Virus record (IMG/VR): IMGVR_UViG_3300004369_000002
Span: 1-64,000 of that record
DNA length: 64,000 bases
Direction: 5' to 3' (one strand)
Origin: a virus
Shown one piece after another: positions 5,144 to 21,641 of the stretch (the stretch's first letter is position 1; each line of letters starts with the position of its first letter). Made by a program: the position numbers and the translations under genes. Under the pieces are notes generated by a model. It ran no database searches. It was given only the letters and a program-made list of their open reading frames with translations, and had not been told where the DNA came from.

Positions 5144-5433
5144 TAGTCATTTCTCCGGGCACGCTTCGGGTTAAGCATCTCATCGTTCAAAGCACCAAAA
5201 TCGCCTGGAATCACAAACTCGTCATAGTCGCGTTCAAGATTAGGCCAGTTCTCGGCAAGCGAATACTTATAGATCGCACTGTAGAAAGCATCGTCGTCCG
5301 GTTCATCAGCCAACGAGTAAGCAACACGAATGATTTTCCGGGCACGTTCCGGATTTGTAACACGAGCAAAGAACAACTCAATAATATTGTCTTTTTGTTT
5401 TTGAGTCAGAGCCTTAACTTTTTTACTTGCCAT
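5143..5433 (-). CDS. Hypothetical protein (~96 aa)
   Basis: Coupled to neighbours by overlaps; ATG 5433 (MASKK) preferred. Confidence 0.65.
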   Translation of the reverse strand: MASKKVKALTQKQKDNIIELFFARVTNPERARKIIRVAYSLADEPDDDAFYSAIYKYSLAENWPNLERDYDEFVIPGDFGALNDEMLNPKRARRND

Positions 5434-5743
5434 CGTTCTTCGCCTCGTGATCAACAACCCGAATTTTCTTTCCGTTTAACTGCATAAAAGCCTGCGCAAA
5501 CTCGTCATCACCTTCACCGGGGGCAAAAGTTTTTACGCTGGAACGCCCGTCACCAAACAGCATCCCGAAAGGATCATCAGTGGTTCGATGAGCGCTCCAC
5601 AGTTCCCCTGGGTCGGAGAAATATTCAAACCACGTATCGACCTCGGATTCATCACCAACAATCATTGTGGTTTTTCCGTCATATCTGAAAGCCCCAGTTG
5701 GCTCATCGGTATTAAGGTCCAAAAAAATGGCGTAACTGTTCAC
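5423..5743 (-). CDS. Small acidic protein homologous to the N-terminal domain of the 2454-aa protein ('domain X'; putative kinase partner)
   Basis: GTGA overlap with the giant gene stop; MN..DLNTDE..GA...DGK...I....S...W aligns with the giant protein N-terminus. Confidence 0.75.
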   Translation of the reverse strand: MNSYAIFLDLNTDEPTGAFRYDGKTTMIVGDESEVDTWFEYFSDPGELWSAHRTTDDPFGMLFGDGRSSVKTFAPGEGDDEFAQAFMQLNGKKIRVVDHEAKNDGK

Positions 5744-8700
5744 TGGGCACCTCGCGGAATGGAAAGTTTTCTCTTCAAATAATCTCTGTGCTCACTGGCA
5801 CGATCAACCTTAGTCTTCAGATGATCGTAAATTTCACCCAGTCGCTGCTCGCGGACACCCCGAACATCCGCACCGCCTACAGTGTCTGGGGCGCCGATCG
5901 ACATTCGACGAATGAACTCGTCACGTCCACCTGAAATAGCAGAACGATAACGGCTCACCATCTCATCGTAACGTTCCAACATTTCACGACGGAACCGAGT
6001 AGCCTCTGCCCGGCTTAATGACCGAACATGATCCTGCATCTCAGGGAATAGTCGCGAATCCATTGCGAACTTGTATGAGGACACAGGGGCATTCGCGCCC
6101 AGCCATTGGTATTGAGGAAGATTGCCGTAGAAACCAACTGCTACACGCCCCTGGTCGTAAGGAACAACAATCGCATTTCCGTTTTCATCAATGAATGTTC
6201 CACCATTCCTGTTATGACGGTCTGCTGAACCCAAGAAAAAGTTATGGAAGAAGTGTGCAGTTCTTGCAGGCAAGCCACGATCGGGAGCGTTGGCTAGTAA
6301 AGCCGGATCATAATCCGCCGCCCCCCGAGTCAACGGGCCATTCCCTGGGGCAAGGTTTGCTGCATGAGGAATCACCGCAAAAACCGCCTCCTCACCCTGA
6401 CCACGACCTCTCACACGCGGGTTCAACTGCGACGTACCAACATAGCCAGCACCCTCAGGCATAATTCCCACAGCAGCGGCGAGGTTATAACTGGCCACCT
6501 CGGCGTAAACGTCATCCATAATGCCTTGGCCGACTTGGTTGGGCCGAGAACCCTTGATTACGAGACCCTGGTTGGTTGGCCTACCGTCTGCATCTCGTAA
6601 CAAGAAAATACGAGTATCCGCTATGTTGCCGTCACGCGGAGGCTTCTCGTAGAACATTGAACCAGGATCAACCTCGGTTCGTGACGAGTTGGCTTGAATT
6701 GCCGAAATCCAATATTGATTTGGAACTTCGCTGAGGCTTCCGCCACTGCGCAAGAAATTGGCTGCCTGCTCGGAAGATTTGATAGAAGCATTCTCAATGA
6801 GACGTGGCTCGGGAAGGTCCCCGGGAGCAACTACAGGTGTAGCAATCTGTCCTCGGCGCTCATCCGGCGGTTGAGGACGAACAAACCCACGAAGCATGTG
6901 ACCGCCATGAACATCAACACCACGACGGTTCAATTGAACGTCAGCGGCATCAGTGGATTCATCAACAGCGTCAAATGAATGCTGGTCTAAGTACAAAGTT
7001 CCGCTACTCAACGGAGCGTTCGACCTCATCCATGCTTTAACTTTATTGATGCGAGCACGCCTGTCGTTGTCGGAACCACCATGCTCTAGAGCGTAGATAA
7101 GTTCCATACGGCTTGGTGAGGTACGACCATCATAATTTACTGCGTTTGCGCGACGAGCAAGTTCAGTGATCATTCGCGCCTGATCCTCAGTCGTAACAAT
7201 GCTGGAGCGTCCTGCACGGAACTTGAGGACTTCGTTGGCTGCTAGATTCCACAGTTCTCGCTGTGAATAACCATCACGGTATCCGACACGACCCCAGATA
7301 TAAGGACCATCAGATGCTGCACCAACTCCAACTCTGTCGAAACCGGCATCCTTCAACCAACCCCATGAATGCCCATTGAGGGCAGTGGCAACACCCATGC
7401 CTTTGAGGATGTGATGATCGTCAGGCATCGGGGTGCCGTCACTATATTTCCATACGTTCCCATCGCGCGTTACGCGTCGACCAGTGATCATGTCAATATC
7501 GCTTGTTGATGCAGTCTGGTAACTGTCGTGGCCCACAGAGAAAACAGAACTGGAAATCTTTCCATCGCTGCCGATCATGCGCGTAAAGGCGCCGACATTG
7601 TTTGACACCTCGGTTCCATCAGCCATTTTTGCAACAAGTCTTCCGTAAATGCTAATGGTGCCTCTGCTGAACTGAACATCGCTGACGACAGAACGCACGG
7701 ATGTTCCTTGTGGTCCTTCTACTTCTATTTCGTAAAGATTCTTCACCCACTCTTTAATTTTGCGTTTTTCCTCGGGTGTTCCGTTCGCCAATTTGTCAGC
7801 CATGGTCGCTGCAGTCAATGGATGTTCACCGCCATTGCGACGCTTATAGTTATCCCACGGATTACCCGTATCATTCGGATACTTCTTGCGGAAAACGGCA
7901 GTGAGCGACCGACGACGCTTCTTCTGTGCATTTTCAAGAATGCCGTCAATCATGGCAGCGGCTTCACTGTCAGTACTAATTAGATCCTGAACACCGTTAA
8001 CCACACCATTGGGCTCATTCACAACTCGCTGAGCACCAAGACCGGGATCAGGAGCCTGAGGAATACCCCACGCAGCCTGAATTGCGCGCTTACGATTCTC
8101 CAACTGCTGCCGTGTCAGCGAAGTGCGCGTCATCGACAACGCAACATATTGACCCAAATACTTTTGAAGCACATCATCTGATTGCACCCACCTACCGGCA
8201 GCAGCAATAGCACCACGGTCCAACAAATTATCAATGTCAGCCAGGCGTCGTTCATCTGCAGCCCTATCGACACCAATAGGTGCCTGATAAATATCGCGCG
8301 CACGATCAGCAACCTGACTGGCATGACCTTGAGCCAAAAGAAGTTGACGGGTCAGTTCATTGGGCGTTTCCTCAAAAAGACCCTGATCGCGTTCCCGAAG
8401 ATCTCTCTCTGACTTATACCTCTGACCCAAAGCACGCAAGAAGTTGCGCCCATCACCATCACCCTCAAGCCCCACACGCGCAGCATCAACCATCGCCTGA
8501 TACGACGCCACCCACGAATCAACATCAGACTTCAACTCATCGATACGCCCTTCAATTGTCTGAGGCATATCACCAGGAACTGTCCGGTTATACAACAACT
8601 CGCGATTTCGCCTGATATTTTCGGCATGACGTTTCATCGAAGAAGCAGCAACCGCCATACGGTTAGCGTCGTCGCGACCCATCCCTATACGACGACGCAA

Positions 8701-11700
8701 ATTATCATCCATCTCACCGCTACTGATAGATGCCATGGCAAGATACCGAATTGTTTCGGCGCGCCTGTCCGCATCCATCCCGTCCCAGCCGCCGCCCTTC
8801 CAACCGAGAATTCCCGAGAAATCCCCAGGACCGAGCGATCCACCGTTGTCTAGCCATTCCTGATTAACAAAAGAGACGACCTCATCCAAAGCACTATCTT
8901 CACGTCCTGCACCGTCGCCAATAATCGCGTTGATTCCGGCAGGGATTGCGTAGCGCTGACGGAAAAAATCCTCCCGATAATCATCGAACATCGGATGGAA
9001 AATACCTTCGTCGTATATTTCTCCACGAAGATTGATTTTTGTTTGGTCTATATCTCGGAATAGTGGCGTCGCTCCGGGAGCCATAGCGTTACGAGCCCGA
9101 TGGAGTTCCCGATAGGCTTCCTCTAGATCTGCAATTTCAGAGTTGCGCAATACGACGCGTCCATCCCAATTCGCTTCTAGACGTGCCCGAATTTGAGCCA
9201 TTTGACCCGTAATGCGTCGCTCTTCGTCTAGCAGTTCTTGAATCTCGTTTGGAGTGTCCGGTCCGGCCCCACCGTTCTGTAGACGATCGACAATGTCTTT
9301 AACTCGTCTTGCTACTGTGCCATCTCGGGCGGCTTGAATGTCGCTTTGTGCAATAGCAGGGACGTCGCCATCTGGCGCGTCAGCCGCCCGAGCCGCAGGA
9401 GCAGCATCGGGAACCGGCGGAGCAGACAGTTCACGTTCCTGCTGCTCTACTTCTGCGAGGGAAATAACCTGCTCAACCTCACGATCCTCAAGCGGACGAC
9501 CCTCAGCCTCACGGCGTTCACGTAGTTTCCGGTTTACGTAGCGTCCACGCTCGTTCAGATCGCCGTTTTCGTCGTAGTAACGATTGAATCGACGGTCGTA
9601 TTCGCGTTCACGAGTCTCGCTATAGTTCCGTCGATTACGGTCACGCCAAGTGGGCCTTGCTGGCAAACCACGCTGCCGGAACGCATTCCAAACATTACGG
9701 AAAGACCGTTCATCAGGTACGCTCCCAGAACCGAAGCCGGGCGAGTCAGGATCAGGGGCATCAACGATGCGTTCTAAGCCAGGATTCCAATCCGGATCAA
9801 CGCGCTGCAAAGATGACATCGCCAGGCGACGTGCATACGCAATGTCCTTGCGTCGTTGACGAATCTCATCGGCTTCATCAGTGAAACCGCCATCACGTAA
9901 ACGCTGTTCAAGAGCCTGCAAAGCATTCTCTCGGTCTTGATACATGTTGAAGGCTCGCTCTAGGGCATCCCTGTTGTTTCCTTCACGCCAGGAACGAACC
10001 TGCTCACCGAAATCGTCTGGCGGAGCAGGGTTATCGGCAAGAGCACGATCAACCTCTTGGCGACGACGACCAGCAGTATCGGGAGTATTCCGATTACGTC
10101 CGTTACGTCCGCCATTCTGACGTATGTTGAATTCTCCTCCAACAAGCCTGAACGCTGGATGGACATCCCTTCGCCCATCCGGACGCTCCAACTCCTCAAA
10201 GATGTCCATATTGCGGTCAACAATGTCTTGCAGACGCGCAACTTCATCATCACGAAGTTCGACCATATTGAAAGGATCGTCTTGGTCATACCGGTATCGC
10301 TGCAGACGATCACGAATCTCATCATCCGACAAGTTGTCAAGTTGACCAGGACGACGATCAGCGACATCAGGTGCATCCGCATCCCCAGGCGAACCAGCCC
10401 CATCAGGAGTCCTCGTACGATCAAAAGAACGGTTCGCTTGCTCTTCAAGCCGATCACGTTCATCCGCATCCAACGGACGGCGGGCCGCCTGCCGCTGATC
10501 CCGCAAATCGTTATTGATGTAACTGCCACGCTCGTTCAGGTTCCCATCGCGATCGTAATACCGTCCAAAACGCTCATCCATTTCGCGTTGCTTATCGCGA
10601 TCCCAGCCAGGACGATTACGGTCACGCCAATAAGCACGCTGAGGCAGACCACGATCAGGGAAACGATTACGCACATTACGCAAAGAACGCTCATCAGGAA
10701 CACTGTCTTCCCTGGGCGGTGAATCAGAACCAATTCCACGACGGTTACGTTCATCATTGATCCGCTCAACAGCAGGATGCGGCACACGGTTACGTTCACG
10801 CAATGGTTGGCGAGGACCATTGTTGGCATTAACAATCCGATTCAGACGTTCCAAATCGTCGTCAGACAGATTCTCCAAATCGTATGGGAAATCATCGCCA
10901 CGAATGAAGTTAGATAGATCATTCAAAATGTCGTCATCGCTACGGTCACCAAGACCAGCAGCAGGACGAGCCTCAGGCGCACGCTCCGCGTCAGGAACTG
11001 GAGCAGCAGCCTCTTCACGCTGTCTACGCCGGTCACGACGACGACGCTCAGCCTTCAGCCGACCAAGATTTCGACGACGTTCCTCAACAAACATGTCGAA
11101 AGTATCTGGATTCGCATTGAACTCGTCTTCTTCTAACTGAACAATCTCTTGAATTGTTTCCAACTCGTTATCGTCCAGATCCTTCAGATTCTCTGGGATG
11201 CCACGCTCTTCACGCCACTGACGATTAGCCTCCTTGCGCCACTGAGAACGATCGTCAGAATCGGGAACAACACGTTCCGCAGCACCACGAGCACGACCAT
11301 TTACATCCGTGCGATCACGACCCCGTTCCGTGCCGCGACGGCGACGCTTCGGCTTCCCCTCCTCCTGAAGCACACGTGCAGCCGCATCATCCAAAGCACG
11401 AGCAATCTGGCGGCGACGTTCATTACGACGTTCACGACGACGCTCACGGCTTTCCCCGCGACGCTCACGGAACTCACCCAGACGCTGAATAGCCTGAGCG
11501 AAGAAATCCATGATCTTCTGCATCAAAGAACGCTGCTCTTCGGATTCTTCACCCCGAGCGGAACCACGACGCTCACGACGAGGACGACGCTCACCGTCTC
11601 CTCCATCACCACGACGGCGATCACGAATTAGATCAGCAAGAACCTGAGCCCACGGACCCAATGCTTCCTTGACACGCTCACGCTCATCAGGATCCTCAAT

Positions 11701-13104
11701 AAAATCAAAAGGATCGTCACTATCCGAAGGACGATCAGCATCAGCGTCGGGAGTCGGTCGACGTTCACCTTGGGGGCGACGAGGACGGACAGGACGCTGC
11801 TCGCTAGGACGCCGACCAGGACGACGACCAGGAGCACGACCGGCTTCCGGAGCATCGGCATCGCCTGCGTCTCCTTCATCGGCTGGGCGATCCCTACCTT
11901 CTCCACGACGAAATGCTTGCTCAGCACGAATCGCCGCCTGGTTCGCTCGCTTGCGACGCTGCTCGGCTTCAGATTCTGGGTTGAAACCGATGCGCCCATC
12001 AGTGGGAGGCTTCTGCAACTCGTTACGGGCAAGTGCCTCTTCCAGTTCAGCGTCATCCATATCTGCCCAACGACGCCCAACTTCACCCCCAGGCAAAATT
12101 TCGTTAGCCGGACCATCGCGACGAACTAGGTTTCCATTTTCGTCAAACCGGTAAGCATTCAGAAGATCATCTTCCGAGCGTCGTTGATCTCGCCGCCCGC
12201 CAAGTCCAGGGACTCCTCGGGTGGGAAGGTCGCGCTGTGGGCGACGCTGAGACGGAGTGCGGTCACGACCCCCACCTCGCCCAGGTCGCGCCGGAGCAAA
12301 GTCTCCAACCAAGCGATCTGCCGCAGCATCCAAACGGTTCGCTACCGCACGACGGCCTTCACGGATGCGCTCACCACGCTCACGACGATTGACAGCAGCC
12401 TGCGTACGCCGAGCCAAACGACGAGCATCACGGCCAGCACCGACATCGTCCAGACGACGACCTGCACGCATCAACGCACGCCCAATACGACGAGTCAAGC
12501 CGCCACCACATCCACGACCAAAACGATCCGTAATCTGGCCGCCGTTCAACGTTCCGTCTGGACAACGCCATCCGCCTCCTGGACCGATGTTTGCGTCGAA
12601 CACAGCACGAACGCGCTTGACCTGAATGTTCAGGGCAGTGACTTTTTGTTCCGTGCGGAAACGGCGAGCCTTGAAGTTGAGAGCAGCCTGACGATCCTTC
12701 GCATCAATCTGATCAAGACGTGTTGAATACAGGTTGGTGCGTGTAACACCCTTCAGAGACTTCCGTCTGATACTTGTCCCCATGGTGGGATGGGTCTTGC
12801 CATCCTGAACGAACTGATCGCCGGGGATATATAGTTCAACTTTGCGGGCGAGTTCTTCGCCATACTGATCTTCGACGCTTTTAACGAAATGCCGATCGAT
12901 GTCAACGGATAGTTCTTGCTGCAAGTTGAGATCCAGCACTGCCTTGACTTCGTTGAAAGTGGCTTTAGAGTCATTGAGCCAAGCGGCCCATTCAACAGAC
13001 TTCAACGAATAGGGGATAGCGATCGCTGCCGATTTCCCGTCGTGGATTACTGCTCCGTAGAGTTCCTGAGTATTGATGTCCTTGATGACACTTGCTTTGT
13101 TCAT
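5740..13104 (-). CDS. Giant 2454-aa polyvalent protein: domain X, Cys motif, Arg/Asp-rich repeats, GNAT-like domain, C-terminal HipA/PI3K-like kinase
   Basis: LKGMGVATALN..GPYIWGRVGY (GNAT); LVIKG, YAEVASYNLA, FFLGSADRHNRN, VPYDQG (kinase); lies between prohead protease and capsid genes. Confidence 0.8.
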   Translation of the reverse strand: MNKASVIKDINTQELYGAVIHDGKSAAIAIPYSLKSVEWAAWLNDSKATFNEVKAVLDLNLQQELSVDIDRHFVKSVEDQYGEELARKVELYIPGDQFVQDGKTHPTMGTSIRRKSLKGVTRTNLYSTRLDQIDAKDRQAALNFKARRFRTEQKVTALNIQVKRVRAVFDANIGPGGGWRCPDGTLNGGQITDRFGRGCGGGLTRRIGRALMRAGRRLDDVGAGRDARRLARRTQAAVNRRERGERIREGRRAVANRLDAAADRLVGDFAPARPGRGGGRDRTPSQRRPQRDLPTRGVPGLGGRRDQRRSEDDLLNAYRFDENGNLVRRDGPANEILPGGEVGRRWADMDDAELEEALARNELQKPPTDGRIGFNPESEAEQRRKRANQAAIRAEQAFRRGEGRDRPADEGDAGDADAPEAGRAPGRRPGRRPSEQRPVRPRRPQGERRPTPDADADRPSDSDDPFDFIEDPDERERVKEALGPWAQVLADLIRDRRRGDGGDGERRPRRERRGSARGEESEEQRSLMQKIMDFFAQAIQRLGEFRERRGESRERRRERRNERRRQIARALDDAAARVLQEEGKPKRRRRGTERGRDRTDVNGRARGAAERVVPDSDDRSQWRKEANRQWREERGIPENLKDLDDNELETIQEIVQLEEDEFNANPDTFDMFVEERRRNLGRLKAERRRRDRRRQREEAAAPVPDAERAPEARPAAGLGDRSDDDILNDLSNFIRGDDFPYDLENLSDDDLERLNRIVNANNGPRQPLRERNRVPHPAVERINDERNRRGIGSDSPPREDSVPDERSLRNVRNRFPDRGLPQRAYWRDRNRPGWDRDKQREMDERFGRYYDRDGNLNERGSYINNDLRDQRQAARRPLDADERDRLEEQANRSFDRTRTPDGAGSPGDADAPDVADRRPGQLDNLSDDEIRDRLQRYRYDQDDPFNMVELRDDEVARLQDIVDRNMDIFEELERPDGRRDVHPAFRLVGGEFNIRQNGGRNGRNRNTPDTAGRRRQEVDRALADNPAPPDDFGEQVRSWREGNNRDALERAFNMYQDRENALQALEQRLRDGGFTDEADEIRQRRKDIAYARRLAMSSLQRVDPDWNPGLERIVDAPDPDSPGFGSGSVPDERSFRNVWNAFRQRGLPARPTWRDRNRRNYSETREREYDRRFNRYYDENGDLNERGRYVNRKLRERREAEGRPLEDREVEQVISLAEVEQQERELSAPPVPDAAPAARAADAPDGDVPAIAQSDIQAARDGTVARRVKDIVDRLQNGGAGPDTPNEIQELLDEERRITGQMAQIRARLEANWDGRVVLRNSEIADLEEAYRELHRARNAMAPGATPLFRDIDQTKINLRGEIYDEGIFHPMFDDYREDFFRQRYAIPAGINAIIGDGAGREDSALDEVVSFVNQEWLDNGGSLGPGDFSGILGWKGGGWDGMDADRRAETIRYLAMASISSGEMDDNLRRRIGMGRDDANRMAVAASSMKRHAENIRRNRELLYNRTVPGDMPQTIEGRIDELKSDVDSWVASYQAMVDAARVGLEGDGDGRNFLRALGQRYKSERDLRERDQGLFEETPNELTRQLLLAQGHASQVADRARDIYQAPIGVDRAADERRLADIDNLLDRGAIAAAGRWVQSDDVLQKYLGQYVALSMTRTSLTRQQLENRKRAIQAAWGIPQAPDPGLGAQRVVNEPNGVVNGVQDLISTDSEAAAMIDGILENAQKKRRRSLTAVFRKKYPNDTGNPWDNYKRRNGGEHPLTAATMADKLANGTPEEKRKIKEWVKNLYEIEVEGPQGTSVRSVVSDVQFSRGTISIYGRLVAKMADGTEVSNNVGAFTRMIGSDGKISSSVFSVGHDSYQTASTSDIDMITGRRVTRDGNVWKYSDGTPMPDDHHILKGMGVATALNGHSWGWLKDAGFDRVGVGAASDGPYIWGRVGYRDGYSQRELWNLAANEVLKFRAGRSSIVTTEDQARMITELARRANAVNYDGRTSPSRMELIYALEHGGSDNDRRARINKVKAWMRSNAPLSSGTLYLDQHSFDAVDESTDAADVQLNRRGVDVHGGHMLRGFVRPQPPDERRGQIATPVVAPGDLPEPRLIENASIKSSEQAANFLRSGGSLSEVPNQYWISAIQANSSRTEVDPGSMFYEKPPRDGNIADTRIFLLRDADGRPTNQGLVIKGSRPNQVGQGIMDDVYAEVASYNLAAAVGIMPEGAGYVGTSQLNPRVRGRGQGEEAVFAVIPHAANLAPGNGPLTRGAADYDPALLANAPDRGLPARTAHFFHNFFLGSADRHNRNGGTFIDENGNAIVVPYDQGRVAVGFYGNLPQYQWLGANAPVSSYKFAMDSRLFPEMQDHVRSLSRAEATRFRREMLERYDEMVSRYRSAISGGRDEFIRRMSIGAPDTVGGADVRGVREQRLGEIYDHLKTKVDRASEHRDYLKRKLSIPRGAQ

Positions 13105-15158
13105 GTTCCTGCGCCAATGATTTGAAGGATCAATTCACGAGACTCCCGAAGTGAAGTCAACCGTGTGTCAAAAATTTCTTTTACGATTGATAGGTGTGAC
13201 TCTTCCGCTGAAGATAGTTTACCGTCAATAGACAATTTCTCCAGGTAATCAGCCCACGAAAACTCTTCAGCACGCGAAATCAACTGGTCCAAAATTTGGA
13301 TCATCAACGCACGCTCATCCTCACCAATCTCAGCAAAAGTACGACCGTAAGCATCAGTGGTCTTACGGAAAAAGTCCTCCGGACCAATAGCCCGCCTGGC
13401 TTCCAACTCATCCGCGTCCAAACCCACCAAAGCGGCGAATGGCCCTACCCCAGCAACAAGTTCAGCCTCTTCACCAACAGTCGCAGTAAAAATCGAATTC
13501 TTCGAACGATCACGAGTATCCGTCAACCAGTCAGCCACCTGAACACCCAAAACCTGCTCCGGCGGCACAACCTCTGGGTCATAATCCTCCGTAATGCCAG
13601 CACCCTCAATCACATTGTCCGGAGACCTGTAATAGAACGGACGATCATCCCCCTCTCCAGCAAACCGAACCGACGGTGACTGAACCCCCAACTCACGCAA
13701 CATCTCCGAACTGTAATGCGCACTCAAATGCTCAAACGTCTCATTGTCCTCCTTGACAACAACACGCTTGCCATCCTCCGTCTCATACAACGTAATGTCA
13801 TCACGAAGTTTGGTGGCCTCATAAATCTCAGCCTGACCCAAAGCCTCCAACACAATCGCCGGATCAATCTCAGACAACAAACCGCCCTTATTGATGTGCT
13901 CAACAGCCTCCTTCACGGAGTCAATTCGCTCTTCAGGCTTCTTCGGAGCAACATTCTGAGGAGCAGCAGCAGGAGCAGCCTCGCCAGGCTCCGGCTCACC
14001 CTCCCCATCACTCAAATCAGCCTCTTCCTCAACCCGTGGAGTTATATCCTCACTAAACGCTTCCTTAGCCCACTTAGGCGTACCGTCATCGTCACCCTCA
14101 GGATCCTTGACGTCACCGTAATCCTTGGACATCTCAAAAGCGCCATCAGCGTTTTCCACGATGAAATCAAGCCGAGCCAAAGGATCCTTTGAAACATCCA
14201 TGTCGGCGGCAGTGTTCGCATCCTTACCAAGTTGACGACGCTCGCCGGTCGAAAGATCCCGCTTCCTATCCAAGCGAATCTGCACTCCGTTTGGAGTCAC
14301 ATAAACCAGTGAAGTGACACCAGTGTTCGACAAGAAGCGAAGTTCGTCCCCACCAAGATTCTCTGGCTTACGAACCGACTGAACGAAAGCGGCTTCTTCC
14401 ATGTTGCGGTTATCCGGAACCTCACGCAAATCTGCGGCAGACACAACAGGGACCATCACAAAACCGTCACGACGAACCAAAACACCAGAATCAGCGTCCT
14501 GATTAGTGATCGCTTCGACAGCCTGCTTGATTCCATCTTCCCGAGCCTCAACGCTCATGGGCCCAACTTCAGAGACACGCGCAGCACGACGAATCATCAA
14601 CTGGGGATTCTCATCGGCTGCTCCACCACCCAAAGCCTGAGCAGTTACAGTCGTGCCGGGAGCAACCGAACGCCGTCGGTCCCTAGTCCGATAAATCGCC
14701 TGACCGAGGGTTTCACGCAAAGACGGGATGTCGAACAACTGTTTCCCACAGGTCGAATAGTTCTCATCTGTGAAACGTCCACCAAACTGGAAACCTTCAG
14801 AACATCGATAGCCACGTTCGTCCGGACTGGGAAGATTAACCCCACGGCCCCCACCACCAGGCGTCAAAGCACGAGCAATACCAGACCGAATTGGACTACG
14901 GGCAGGGCTTACGTTCCCCGGAAGAATCATTGAACCAGCAGCCTGAGCAGCCTGCCCAGCACGCCCCCTAGACCCAACAACCCCGACAACCTTCTCTTGG
15001 ACCCTTTTCAGCGCGTTAGACCGATAAAGGCGAGCCTTGTATTCCACCAGATTCTGATCCCCATTAAGAGGCAAATAGAAAAGATCACGAGCAAAAGAAA
15101 GCGGAGTGCTCAAAGGAACTGACTTACGTTCCATACGCTCGCCGTCGTATTCGCTCAT
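13101..15158 (-). CDS. 685-aa paralog of the giant protein with a degenerate C-terminal kinase-like domain
   Basis: EYKARLYR; YRCSEGFQFGGRFTDENYSTC; IDSVKEAVEHINKGGLLSEI; VVVKE, EHLSAHYSSEMLRELG, DWLTDTRDRSKNS. Confidence 0.7.
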   Translation of the reverse strand: MSEYDGERMERKSVPLSTPLSFARDLFYLPLNGDQNLVEYKARLYRSNALKRVQEKVVGVVGSRGRAGQAAQAAGSMILPGNVSPARSPIRSGIARALTPGGGGRGVNLPSPDERGYRCSEGFQFGGRFTDENYSTCGKQLFDIPSLRETLGQAIYRTRDRRRSVAPGTTVTAQALGGGAADENPQLMIRRAARVSEVGPMSVEAREDGIKQAVEAITNQDADSGVLVRRDGFVMVPVVSAADLREVPDNRNMEEAAFVQSVRKPENLGGDELRFLSNTGVTSLVYVTPNGVQIRLDRKRDLSTGERRQLGKDANTAADMDVSKDPLARLDFIVENADGAFEMSKDYGDVKDPEGDDDGTPKWAKEAFSEDITPRVEEEADLSDGEGEPEPGEAAPAAAPQNVAPKKPEERIDSVKEAVEHINKGGLLSEIDPAIVLEALGQAEIYEATKLRDDITLYETEDGKRVVVKEDNETFEHLSAHYSSEMLRELGVQSPSVRFAGEGDDRPFYYRSPDNVIEGAGITEDYDPEVVPPEQVLGVQVADWLTDTRDRSKNSIFTATVGEEAELVAGVGPFAALVGLDADELEARRAIGPEDFFRKTTDAYGRTFAEIGEDERALMIQILDQLISRAEEFSWADYLEKLSIDGKLSSAEESHLSIVKEIFDTRLTSLRESRELILQIIGAGT

Positions 15159-17627: not shown

Positions 17628-19331
17628 TCATTGTGCTGTGTAGAAGTTCCGGACAGCATTTGTCAACGCCAGTTCAAGTTCGTCTCGCTGTGAAGTATTG
17701 AGGGCCTTTACTGTGATCCCGTTTTCGTGAACTTCTGCCTCAGCCTGATGATGCGACAACACTGGATCAATGAAAGAGCGAAGGTCGAATAGTTCCGACA
17801 TCTTGGCCTCAACCAAAATGGTGTCGTCCTGCTCCTTCATTTCGATTTCGGAGCGCCCGCCAGCAGCAATGATTTCCTGGAGGATTTCCATGGCCCGCTG
17901 GAGTTTCTCCAGATTGCCTGCACTGATGACGCGTCCGGCCTTGAATTCAACATCCTCGGCGTCAAGGGCTGCAAACATTTCGTCAAGGTTGGCGTAGACG
18001 TCCTTGCGCAAAGATTTGCCACACGAACATCCAGTCTTGCCATACTCCTCATCGTCGTCATCCTCATAATCGGATGGCTTAGGAATACGACGCTCCTCAC
18101 CTTCGTCATCGCCCTCGTACTCGTTGCCGTAACCAGCCTCTTCGTCGCCGTCCTCCATCTCCATGTAGACGGTACGGGCTACAACTTGTACAGGATCTCC
18201 GAACATGAACTGGCCATCTTCATAGTGGTAGCCAACCCTCATCGTCATCGGCTTTCCATCGTGCAGATGATCGAAGATGACCTGATTTTTCGACACTTGG
18301 CGCATACGAACCGGCCCGCCGAATCGTTTCCCAATCTCGGCGACTAGCGAACGCATCATGTTCATCGCGGGGGACATTGGCATCATCCCCCACCCGCCTT
18401 TTTCTTGAGCCGTTTCGTCGACCTCGGGAAGAGTCTCGTCGGCCTTTTTCTTCATATCCGACTTCTTCATAGCCTCCCGGACCACATTCTTCATGAAGTC
18501 CTCGCCCCTGCTCCCCACTGCCAGCCACTTGATCTGTGCGATCACGCCGGGAAGCCGGAAGTCTTGAGCGTGGCGGGCCACCCATGCTTCGCGCAGTTCT
18601 AGAGCGTTTACCTGGTCGGGAGTGTCCGCCAGTCCGCCGCTTTCCGCGATCTTCGTGAGGATCGCGTATTGGGCGTTCCCCTTGATATTTCCGCCTTTGG
18701 CCCAAATCTCTGGATATTCCTCTTTTATGCGAGCCGCGAATTCACGGTCGAACATCTTCCATTTGCTCTTACCAAAGGAGTCAACTTTCTGCTCGCCTGT
18801 TTCACTCTTAATCGAAATAGTACCAGTTAACTGATTAGCCCCATGAAGAACAGGGCTAACTTCGTAAAGTTCTACTTCACGTAGCAGATTTGCTTGACGG
18901 TTATTGTCATAAATGGCGTCCAAAGTCTTGTAGCCAATGCTCCATTCCTGCTCTTCACCATAGAAAGCAACATTGGCAAATGCCTCTCGCCCCTTCTCGG
19001 ACTTGAGGTTGAACTGGACTCGGGCAAAAAGGCCACCGATACCAGCAGCCTTCATTTTGCCGGGCAGACGCGGATCGCTCGCCGGAACTTCGTAGATCTC
19101 CAGAACCTTGCCGATTGGATGATTCCAGTCGTGACCCCACACGACACGAGGCTTGCGACGCTTGAGACTTTCAGTAAATGCGCCGGGCAGAACAATGTCA
19201 CCCACGGAGTCCTTATTGCCAACACCAGAAACAAAACACTCAACGATGCCTTTTGCCTCGTCAACGTTAATTTGCCCGCTGATTGCCTTGAACTCTACCG
19301 AGCCCGACTGACCTGAAATAGTGGATGGCAT
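17628..19331 (-). CDS. HK97-family prohead protease (S78) with long C-terminal extension
   Basis: DSVGDIVLPGAF, VWGHDWNHPIG (His), EWSIGY (Ser), LYEVSPVLHGAN. Confidence 0.93.
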   Translation of the reverse strand: MPSTISGQSGSVEFKAISGQINVDEAKGIVECFVSGVGNKDSVGDIVLPGAFTESLKRRKPRVVWGHDWNHPIGKVLEIYEVPASDPRLPGKMKAAGIGGLFARVQFNLKSEKGREAFANVAFYGEEQEWSIGYKTLDAIYDNNRQANLLREVELYEVSPVLHGANQLTGTISIKSETGEQKVDSFGKSKWKMFDREFAARIKEEYPEIWAKGGNIKGNAQYAILTKIAESGGLADTPDQVNALELREAWVARHAQDFRLPGVIAQIKWLAVGSRGEDFMKNVVREAMKKSDMKKKADETLPEVDETAQEKGGWGMMPMSPAMNMMRSLVAEIGKRFGGPVRMRQVSKNQVIFDHLHDGKPMTMRVGYHYEDGQFMFGDPVQVVARTVYMEMEDGDEEAGYGNEYEGDDEGEERRIPKPSDYEDDDDEEYGKTGCSCGKSLRKDVYANLDEMFAALDAEDVEFKAGRVISAGNLEKLQRAMEILQEIIAAGGRSEIEMKEQDDTILVEAKMSELFDLRSFIDPVLSHHQAEAEVHENGITVKALNTSQRDELELALTNAVRNFYTAQ

Positions 19332-19421: not shown

Positions 19422-21641
19422 TCAGAAATCGAAACCCAAACGGCAACGACAGTTAATGGTCAAGCCGGGAGGAGCCAACGGATCGCCAGGGAACCGCAAC
19501 AAGGCACCCTCAACAGCAAACCCATCACCGATATCAACACTCTTTCCGTCCAAGAATCGGTGAGATTCACGCACACGAGCATCCTTGCGTGTCAACCACT
19601 TTTTCCTCGGAATACCGGCAGCGACACTACCCAGATAAGTGCCAGCATTGAAAGCAGACTGAGACTCATGCTCAGCGATAGTCCGCTTTCGCTTCGCCAA
19701 CAAGTTCGCAAAAATGGCAATCAAAGCGGCACGCAACATGCTTGCTTTATCGTCGTCGGAACCAGACAAAGCCATCACAACCAGAAGAGCGGCCGCCAAC
19801 TCTTCCTTGGTTGTTTCATTGGCCTGCTGAGCGCGAGCAACCTGAGCCTCCAAAACCTCTTCTAGTTCCTTCTCGGCGATAGTTCCCGTTTCGCCAATGT
19901 CTTCAGAAACAAGATTGGCTGCATCCAACAAAATGGCCTTGAACAACGGGCGAAGGTCATCGTCCATTTGCCGGTTCCACACGTCAACATCAAAAATGGC
20001 GTCCACCGACAGCAAATTCTCGCGAATCGCCTTCCGGCTCTTGGCACCCAACGCCTTCTCCAGGATCACTCGCTGCTGACGTTCGAACAGCCGATCCAAA
20101 GAGGCATCAACAATTTCGGTCCATCGGTCGGCAGTATCTTCAGCCTTCTTGTCCCAAACGGTCAGAGCCTGATTCAAAACCTTGGTCTCAATACCAGAAC
20201 GCGGTTCGCTGAGTTGCCCTTCAGGAATGGGTTCGATCGCTGCCTCCACAGGCTGACCTTCAGCGGGTTGCCCTTCCATCTCAGGCATTGCACCTGGCTG
20301 AGGCGCACCCCCTGCGGGCTGTCCTTCCATGCCAGGCATTGCTCCACCTGCACTGCCATCCGGAACAGCGCCCGCCTGAGCGATCGGCATTTGATCTTCA
20401 ATACTGAAAGGCTTTTCCGTATTGGCAATCGGAACCAAATTCGGGTTTGACAGCAACTGGTCAGCGATTTCGGACTCAACGTTTTTACGTCCAGTTCCTT
20501 CACGATACTCGTTCGCGCTGATCAGTCCGTTCCCAAACTCTTCCATCAAATATCGTTCACGTTCCTGCTTAGACAGGATGAGAATCGGAACGTCCTTGGT
20601 GTCAAAATCGACGTAGTACTTGTCGTCAAGTTCGTCCAAAGCACGGGCCAAAGGCTCCAGATGGGGAAGCATGGTTTCCATCCAGAAAACACGCAATTCT
20701 TCGGCAGCATTGGAGAAAGTTCTTCCTGAGGCATTTCCGATCACGGATTCAGGAACACCAAAAGCAGCAAGAATCTCTTCTTTGGTGATTTGACGCATTT
20801 CGACGTACGCTGCGTCACGAGGATTGGAAGCGGTGTCAATGAAATCGGCACCTTCTTCGGAACTGATTACAGAAACAGATCCCGTCCTGCTGAGATTTCC
20901 ACGGAATCGACTACGCAGTTCGTCAGCGTCGTCCGGGTCCAATTCTCCGCGAACGACAAGTAGTCCTCCAGGGCGACCGTCGTTCAACAAGAAGTTTCGA
21001 TTGTAGAGACGAGAAAGGTTTTCGATTTCGATGGCAATGCCAGCGGACTCCATTGGAGTCAAAGACAAGTAAGGATCAAGTGGGTGAGGTCGACGTACCC
21101 ACACAACTTTCTCCGGGGGAAGAACATACTTTTGGCCAGTGGGCAGATCGACCTGATATCCCGAGACGAAGCGCTTAGGGTCGGGAAGGGGCGCAGTGAA
21201 CTGCGGAGGGAGCAAGTTCAACGCAATGACACTTCCATCACGTCCAGTGACTTTTTCAATGAATACTCCACGGGTCGACATCAAAAGTTGGCTAGACAGT
21301 CGATAGCGGAACACGAAGGAGTTTTCCCCTTCGTTTGACTTGGTGTTGAGCAAGTCCAGGACACGATGCTTCTTGTTGACGACTTCCCCGTTGGGGTTGT
21401 TGTCCTTGCGGAGTATGACGGGGAGTCGGGCTTGGTTTCCGGCGATGGCGTCGATACAGCGGGAAACCCATACGACCTTTTGCAAACCTTCTCGGTATGC
21501 GCGTTCGATATCCCAGGAATCACGGTATGGCTTTCCGGCCATTGCCGGGTGAAGGGCGACGGGTGCGCCCGGACCAAGTGTTCCTGCTTTTTGCTGGCTA
21601 TTGCCACCCAGGTTCTTGGTCTGCCGAGAGTTCCATGCCAT
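19422..21641 (-). CDS. Portal protein fused to C-terminal MuF-like minor head domain
   Basis: CIDAIA, L.P..SA, F.NDGRPGGLL, EILAAFGVP...G, TFSNA, GLISANEYR; then KKWLTRKDARVRESH..LDG...FPGDP...INCRC. Confidence 0.92.
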   Translation of the reverse strand: MAWNSRQTKNLGGNSQQKAGTLGPGAPVALHPAMAGKPYRDSWDIERAYREGLQKVVWVSRCIDAIAGNQARLPVILRKDNNPNGEVVNKKHRVLDLLNTKSNEGENSFVFRYRLSSQLLMSTRGVFIEKVTGRDGSVIALNLLPPQFTAPLPDPKRFVSGYQVDLPTGQKYVLPPEKVVWVRRPHPLDPYLSLTPMESAGIAIEIENLSRLYNRNFLLNDGRPGGLLVVRGELDPDDADELRSRFRGNLSRTGSVSVISSEEGADFIDTASNPRDAAYVEMRQITKEEILAAFGVPESVIGNASGRTFSNAAEELRVFWMETMLPHLEPLARALDELDDKYYVDFDTKDVPILILSKQERERYLMEEFGNGLISANEYREGTGRKNVESEIADQLLSNPNLVPIANTEKPFSIEDQMPIAQAGAVPDGSAGGAMPGMEGQPAGGAPQPGAMPEMEGQPAEGQPVEAAIEPIPEGQLSEPRSGIETKVLNQALTVWDKKAEDTADRWTEIVDASLDRLFERQQRVILEKALGAKSRKAIRENLLSVDAIFDVDVWNRQMDDDLRPLFKAILLDAANLVSEDIGETGTIAEKELEEVLEAQVARAQQANETTKEELAAALLVVMALSGSDDDKASMLRAALIAIFANLLAKRKRTIAEHESQSAFNAGTYLGSVAAGIPRKKWLTRKDARVRESHRFLDGKSVDIGDGFAVEGALLRFPGDPLAPPGLTINCRCRLGFDF

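Follow-up and report, generated by a model that had tools for sequence, protein, structure and literature searches.

The window analysed here, the first 64 kb of the 104.8-kb IMG/VR virus record IMGVR_UViG_3300004369_000002 of an uncultured phage, carries in its head-morphogenesis operon a gene for a giant protein of 2454 amino acids and, directly downstream, a gene for a stand-alone protein of 106 amino acids, which we term S2. Our analysis indicates that S2 and the N-terminal domain of the giant (the N-domain, or S1) are very probably old paralogs within a single family of small α/β domains, termed S, and that the locus probably arose by tandem duplication of a two-gene unit, with S1 becoming fused to the second cargo protein. 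The unit, A+S, would comprise a cargo protein (A), which has an RCPxG cysteine motif close to the N-terminus and ends in a PI3/4-kinase-like domain (KLD), and an S protein of about 100 residues whose start codon overlaps the stop codon of A. Its duplication, and the fusion of one partner copy onto the next cargo gene, would have given rise to the observed order of 1) A1, a protein of 685 residues ending in a degenerate copy of the domain (KLD'); 2) S1 and an expanded A2, joined in one reading frame as the giant; and 3) S2. To this explanation as a whole we assign a probability of about 0.7.

Both open reading frames (ORFs) are present on the minus strand as the first-pass annotation had read them (Table 1), and the residue matches from which it took S2 for a paralog of the N-terminus of the giant are real: in an ungapped BLASTP alignment of residues 1-28 of the two proteins, 11/28 positions are identical and 17/28 are positive (pairwise E 4e-5). 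The Smith-Waterman score of S2 against the giant N-terminus is 59, against 22-26 ± 4 for shuffled sequences (z 7-11), and none of 2000 shuffles attained 59; when the whole giant was used, this score was reached by 4/500 shuffles. The comparison with shuffles that the annotation had named as a check accordingly places the pair well above the background. In a six-frame translation of the 64 kb the two N-termini are reciprocal best non-self matches, with scores of 59/55 versus 41/37 for the next best. At the DNA level the aligned part is identical at 43/84 positions, with matches at 20/28 second codon positions and at 9/28 third codon positions. This pattern points to old conservation at the protein level and, given the low match at third positions, rules out a recent gene conversion.

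The relationship extends to the respective families. S2 has three close relatives (69-80% identity); a profile search across 1.84 billion representatives yielded further S proteins of about 100-115 residues with 24-32% identity, and the first 200 residues of the giant define a family of proteins of 1400-2500 residues. Genomic context was drawn from 18 loci from IMG/VR and one metagenome locus (L021). A hidden Markov model (HMM) of S, built from 10 members that were all search-derived small proteins, finds the S2 of the window at 2.5e-43 and recovers, above all noise, the ORFs right after the giants in L003, L011, L014, L010 (s1 and s2) and L012 (s1 and s2). Two further ORFs, L005s2 and L007s2, which had first been taken by eye as S members, were ruled out by a leave-out HMM, and the comparison of S with the giant N-termini was repeated without them. 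In this comparison, hhalign aligned the first 48 residues of S (16-18 sequences) with the first 50 of 22 giants over 47 columns, in register from residue 1, with a score of 24.8-25.3 (P 1.9e-5, probability 78%); 200 column shuffles gave 7.5 ± 1.5, with a maximum of 13.4. Removal of the clade of the window from both profiles left a score of 20.6-23.3 (P 5e-5 to 3e-4), and pairs of S and giant sequences from unrelated lineages gave z 5-9 in the same register (e.g. L010s1 with P0015, z 8.6). The pattern common to S and the N-domain consists of a short hydrophobic strand, a loop, the motif [VI][VI]xDG, a strand with [IV]G at its end and a helix that carries W..[WY]..[DN][SP]. The annotation had carried its alignment across a gap to residue ~45, through W..[WY]..D[SP]; the pairwise comparisons do not recover this extension, but the profile-profile alignment does. 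Its assignment of one and the same domain to both proteins likewise holds by sequence for the first ~47 residues, but not for the second half of S2 against giant residues 47-112.

Structure prediction, which had also been proposed as a check, returned confident models for both proteins. AlphaFold2 modelled S2 with a pLDDT (predicted local distance difference test) of 90.8 and residues 1-~105 of the giant as a block with a pLDDT of 80-88; going by their listed elements (Table 1), the two models have a like order of secondary structure, with near-identical positions over the first ~55 residues. The top-50 lists of BFVD matches for the two models have 4 targets in common.

Paralogy is further strengthened by the duplicated context, because each copy of S follows a paralogous kinase-like domain across overlapping stop and start codons. 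The C-terminal ~370 residues of the giant align with the C-terminal ~310 of A1 (hhalign 95.8%, E 6.9e-9, 298 columns), and giant residues 116-211, which include the cysteine motif, align with A1 residues 15-155 (94%, E 1.3e-7, 93 columns). Hence, the giant begins with an S-like domain and continues as an expanded paralog of the entire 685-residue protein, and the layout of the locus is A1, S1::A2, S2. At the junction of A1 and the giant (...ACATGA) the TGA stop of A1 overlaps the ATG of the giant in an ATGA; at the junction of the giant and S2 (...CAGTGA) the TGA of the giant overlaps the GTG of S2 in a GTGA, with a GAGG ribosome-binding site upstream of this start. The N-domain is missing from the giants of some relatives, namely P0027/P0029, L013 and L017, which start just after it, and L019, and is therefore a separable module. 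The paralogy thus has the support of four independent lines, namely pairwise scores, profile-profile comparison, AlphaFold2 models and duplicated context. That the domain brackets the 7.4-kb gene at both ends is correct as geometry, and the locus is better described as a tandem duplication of A+S in which one S became fused to the A that follows.

The six top PDB matches of a profile of nine KLD sequences are all PI4K-beta structures (best E 0.009), and the alignment spans the catalytic loop and the DFG motif. D219, N224 and D241 are invariant in the nine sequences, and the KLD of the window has the catalytic loop and DxG motif in the form of SADRHNRN and YDQG. In its DRHxxN loop and metal-binding DxG motif the KLD resembles the PI3/PI4-kinase catalytic domain (PF00454) and HipA-like kinases; it differs from PF00454 in its very low identity and in having no lipid-kinase accessory domains, and the copy in A1 is without the His and Asn of the loop. 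Against PF00454 (PI3_PI4_kinase) itself the KLD of the window had no match, and one of six relatives matched at E 0.13, below the gathering threshold. In KLD' the catalytic loop reads DTRDRSKNS instead of DRHxxN, and for this reason the domain is probably inactive.

In the related loci S accompanies the KLD. An S gene lies directly downstream of every complete giant that ends in a KLD (the window, L003, L011, L014 and L021), including the S protein of L021 (P0040), which is 24% identical to S2 of the window. The second giants of L010 and L012 carry a tandem pair of KLDs and have two S genes downstream, and the giants of L005 and L007 end in a different domain and are followed by small ORFs that fail the S profile. 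The KLD and S trees have the same top split (100/100), and both duplications are confined to the lineage of L010 and L012, where the fast-evolving KLD-b adjoins the fast-evolving s1 and the slow KLD-a pairs with the slow s2. As these loci are kin, we regard the co-occurrence as suggestive.

From this pairing we tentatively propose, at somewhat less than even odds, that S is the cognate binding partner of the KLD, as an inhibitor or chaperone when free and as a dock on the pseudokinase when fused. S would bind the KLD one-to-one: free S2 would, in the producing cell, restrain the apparently intact kinase of the giant or act as its chaperone, and fused S1 would serve to dock the giant on the pseudokinase end of A1, linking the cargo proteins for their entry into the prohead. 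Packaging of the proteins, and their ejection along with the DNA, is probable, judging only from the position of their genes between those of the prohead protease and the major capsid protein. The still more specific notion that S is a module dedicated to the binding of an atypical (PI3/4-kinase-like) kinase fold, and that S would silence or chaperone an active, virion-delivered kinase in its free form and in its fused form would dock on a pseudokinase and thereby chain giant cargo for capsid loading, is speculative and, in our estimate, quite improbable. As for other roles, an acidic chaperone or a DNA mimic is ruled out by the isoelectric points of the family, which run from 4.2 to 9.5.

Several observations weigh against the explanation as given above. 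1) The second halves of S2 and of the N-domain have no detectable sequence similarity. 2) Searches with the HMM of either family against sequences of the other, S and giant N-domain, were not significant (E 1.6 or worse). 3) The hhalign probability for S and the N-domain lies below 95%. 4) The identification of the KLD as a kinase is weak both in the PDB comparison and in Pfam. 5) Giants without the N-domain still follow an A1 with KLD' (L013, L017 and L019), so any docking role must be dispensable. 6) The pairing of KLD and S was seen in about 8 related loci, which do not count as phylogenetically independent cases, and the adjacency could simply be inherited.

The alternative that survives best, though we still hold it to be unlikely, makes S a classical immunity protein, or antitoxin, for a toxic C-terminal kinase in the manner of polymorphic toxins, with the N-domain of the giant as a functionless relic of fusion. 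The S gene does lie right downstream of the KLD with translational coupling, other C-terminal domains do have other small genes downstream (L005 and L007), and KLD-b and s1 diverge together in L010 and L012; the same layout is found in the MuF polymorphic toxins of temperate phages with their downstream immunity genes (Jamet et al. 2017, PMC5576092), which also resemble the present locus in their location in the head module, their C-terminal enzyme domain and a small gene directly downstream that differs when the C-terminal domain differs (PMC5576092). A relic, however, would not be expected to be conserved in sequence across most giants and to fold confidently, and the partner of a probably inactive KLD' would need no immunity protein. 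Further, the MuF domain of the window is on the portal and none is present in the giant, and, unlike in toxin-immunity pairs, the S partner also occurs as an N-terminal fusion to the next cargo protein. This alternative overlaps with the explanation that we favour, the sole difference being the role of S1.

Less probable again is that the shared N-terminus represents a capsid-targeting or protease-processed leader that sends both proteins into the prohead and has no relation to the KLD. The T4 capsid-targeting sequence of IPI-III and Alt is such a short, cleaved N-terminal peptide common to several internal proteins, and the S-type element is like it in being N-terminal and common to proteins encoded for prohead loading. 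Both genes do lie between those of the prohead protease and the capsid protein, with the similarity placed exactly at the two N-termini, but the shared part belongs to a confidently folded domain of ~100 residues rather than to a short peptide, and this domain occurs in only two of at least seven proteins of the cargo block, with no other gene of the block (685, 493, 262, 104 and 830 amino acids) carrying the shared part. Moreover, some giants without it remain in the same operon, and the copy number of S tracks that of the KLD and not that of the cargo proteins. As a general leader of all cargo proteins it is ruled out, the giant and S2 being the only proteins to share it; no further ORF matched in a six-frame translation of the window or the genome.

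The least probable alternative, chance or convergence between unrelated small domains that each begin with a three-stranded β-meander and a helix and score through a hydrophobic/Gly/Asp pattern, can draw on the low identity, on the lack of conservation in either family of the identities seen in the phage of the window (D.NT and DGK), on the non-significant HMM cross searches and on the dissimilar C-terminal halves, but is opposed by a profile-profile score about 11 standard deviations above column shuffles and robust to the removal of the clade of the window, by an alignment that begins at residue 1 in both proteins, by the independent duplication of the flanking KLD and Cys-motif modules in the same order and by the BFVD matches common to both models.

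In a wider frame, the giant recalls the polyvalent proteins known from phages and conjugative elements (Iyer, Burroughs, Anand, de Souza and Aravind 2017, PMC5512222). Like them, it is a very large protein, apparently of several domains, whose gene lies among those for the virion; it has a putative kinase-type and possibly a GNAT-type domain, small ORFs nearby encode related domains, and delivery along with the DNA is proposed. The kinases of the polyvalent proteins are truncated ones of the Ser/Thr/Tyr type, unlike the KLD of the giant with its PI3/4-kinase-like DRHxxN loop; the giant has no match to the LPD or other Pfam domains of the polyvalent set described there, and the part of that survey considered here has no description of the S domain or of the A+S duplication (PMC5512222).

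The genes of the operon are listed in Table 1. The cargo block is flanked by the portal with its MuF domain, the S78 protease, the HK97-type capsid protein and the large terminase (TerL), the last on the strand opposite to that of the head operon. The genes for the 685-residue protein, the giant, the 106-residue protein and a protein of ~96-104 residues abut or overlap one another; the last of these overlaps the end of S2 by 11 nt, is syntenic in L011 and L021 and is unrelated to S.

Table 1. Features of the cargo block and neighbouring head genes, by position in the window, with the secondary-structure elements (E, strand; H, helix) of the two AlphaFold2 models by residue
Feature	Position	Strand	Remarks
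Portal with C-terminal MuF domain	19422-21641	minus	First of the operon genes listed
S78 prohead protease	17628-19331	minus	Next after the portal
Proteins of 493, 262 and 685 amino acids		minus	Between the S78 protease and the giant, in that order
A1, 685 amino acids	13101..15158	minus	Short paralog of the giant minus the N-domain
KLD', A1 residues 369-682	13113..14054	minus	Paralog of the giant KLD
Giant, S1::A2, 2454 amino acids	5740..13104	minus	ATG start; putative virion cargo or polyvalent protein
S1 (N-domain), giant residues 1-~105	12790..13104	minus	S-like; fused in frame
Giant residues 116-211	12472..12759	minus	Homologous to the A1 N-terminus; Cys motif GPGGGWRCPDG..GG.ITDRFGRGCGGG
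KLD, giant residues ~2077-2448	5761..6876	minus	LVIKG, AEV, DRHNRN, YDQG
S2, 106 amino acids	5423..5743	minus	GTG start; stand-alone small α/β protein of the S family
First 48 residues of S2 (β1-β2-β3-helix)	5600..5743	minus	Part with detectable similarity to the giant N-terminus
Conserved small gene, ~96-104 amino acids	5143..5433	minus	MASKKVK...; likely ATG at 5433
Protein of 830 amino acids	2651-5143	minus	Upstream neighbour of the capsid gene
HK97-type major capsid protein	1179-2483	minus	Last of the operon genes listed
S2 model			E3-8, E15-21, E25-30, H32-43, H49-52, H58-63, E70-73, H79-88, E93-98
Giant N-terminus model			E3-9, E15-21, E25-31, H34-46, H50-56, E61-68, H71-81, H83-90, E98-100

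S2 had no match in Pfam, PHROG, PDB or Atlas, and neither the giant nor the 104-residue protein matched a Pfam or PHROG family; a megablast search with the region and tblastn searches with S2 and the first 220 residues of the giant against 50,697 phage records found nothing. The nearest cultured relatives of the capsid protein, in Gordonia phage GMA6 and others, are 49% identical and have an unannotated block in the same place, in which no S or giant homologue is detectable. Searches of IMG/VR with S2, of metagenomes with the close S alignment and of IMG/VR with the distant S alignment gave no further loci, and nor did a search with A3 (too divergent).

Some further observations concern individual proteins. 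In P0041, a protein of 194 residues, residues 95-166 are a clear S domain, and residues 9-28 weakly resemble the N-domain of the giant type (YGAAILHDDGSVELFGV, about 2-4 bits); the protein may have two S domains in tandem or may stand between the two subfamilies. The Cys mini-motif, [WY]RCP[DE]G-x3-GG-x-[IF]TD-x5-CG found on the minus strand at 12472-12600 and 14694-14830, is shared without variation by all giants (GPGGGWRCPDG..GGQITDRFGRGCGGG) and recurs in the 685-residue family as RGYRC[PS]EGFQFGGRFTDENxxTCGKQ; it has no Pfam match and may bind a metal or form a disulfide. Around giant residue ~1902 (window ~7280-7400, minus strand) a segment GMGVATALNG...DGPYIWGRVGY, conserved across giants, resembles by eye the GNAT motif A and the C-terminal GNAT strand. 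The portal matches Phage_Mu_F at residues 649-735 and is thus a portal-MuF fusion. The 830-residue protein has a match to DUF3721 at residues 16-38, above the Pfam cut-off, a weaker one to DUF5872 at residues 119-181, below it, and matches to two PHROGs of unknown function; its homologues (MAK..A..IARY.GCSGAH...G.W.PC) are syntenic in those related loci that reach past the small ORFs.

Variant arrangements occur in four of the related loci. In L010 (16472-20722) and L012 (16466-20446) the cargo gene is split into a protein of 2041 residues, running from the N-domain to a KLD'-like end, an ORF of 125 residues and a protein of 1326-1416 residues with two KLDs; some of these KLD copies have another residue in place of the predicted ATP-binding Lys (VVFAR, FLIQR), and the 125-residue ORF between the two giants has a weak RYD..VVGD match to S (P 0.01-0.05). 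In L005 (16055-17694) and L007 (15077-16734) a different C-terminal domain is followed by an ORF of 146-152 residues and one of 111-115 residues, both non-S by HMM, an arrangement which looks like the cassette-swap pattern of polymorphic toxin loci.

Large cargo or polyvalent proteins are common in the head operons of phages and almost unstudied. The locus described here offers a testable handle on the means by which the producing cell is spared their effects and on the route by which they enter capsids, in the form of an S domain which has no match among solved folds, goes one-to-one with a KLD and occurs both free and fused. If S does bind the KLD, it would represent a new family of partners, inhibitor or dock, for phage-delivered atypical kinases, and would also explain how a gene for a protein of 2454 residues was built, by fusion of a partner gene to the next paralog. 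If the docking role is also true, it would constitute a new protein-protein docking system for phage cargo, derived from a fold without a solved relative. If S does not bind the KLD, the locus would still be a clean case of the duplication of a gene pair, followed by fusion, in a phage structural operon.

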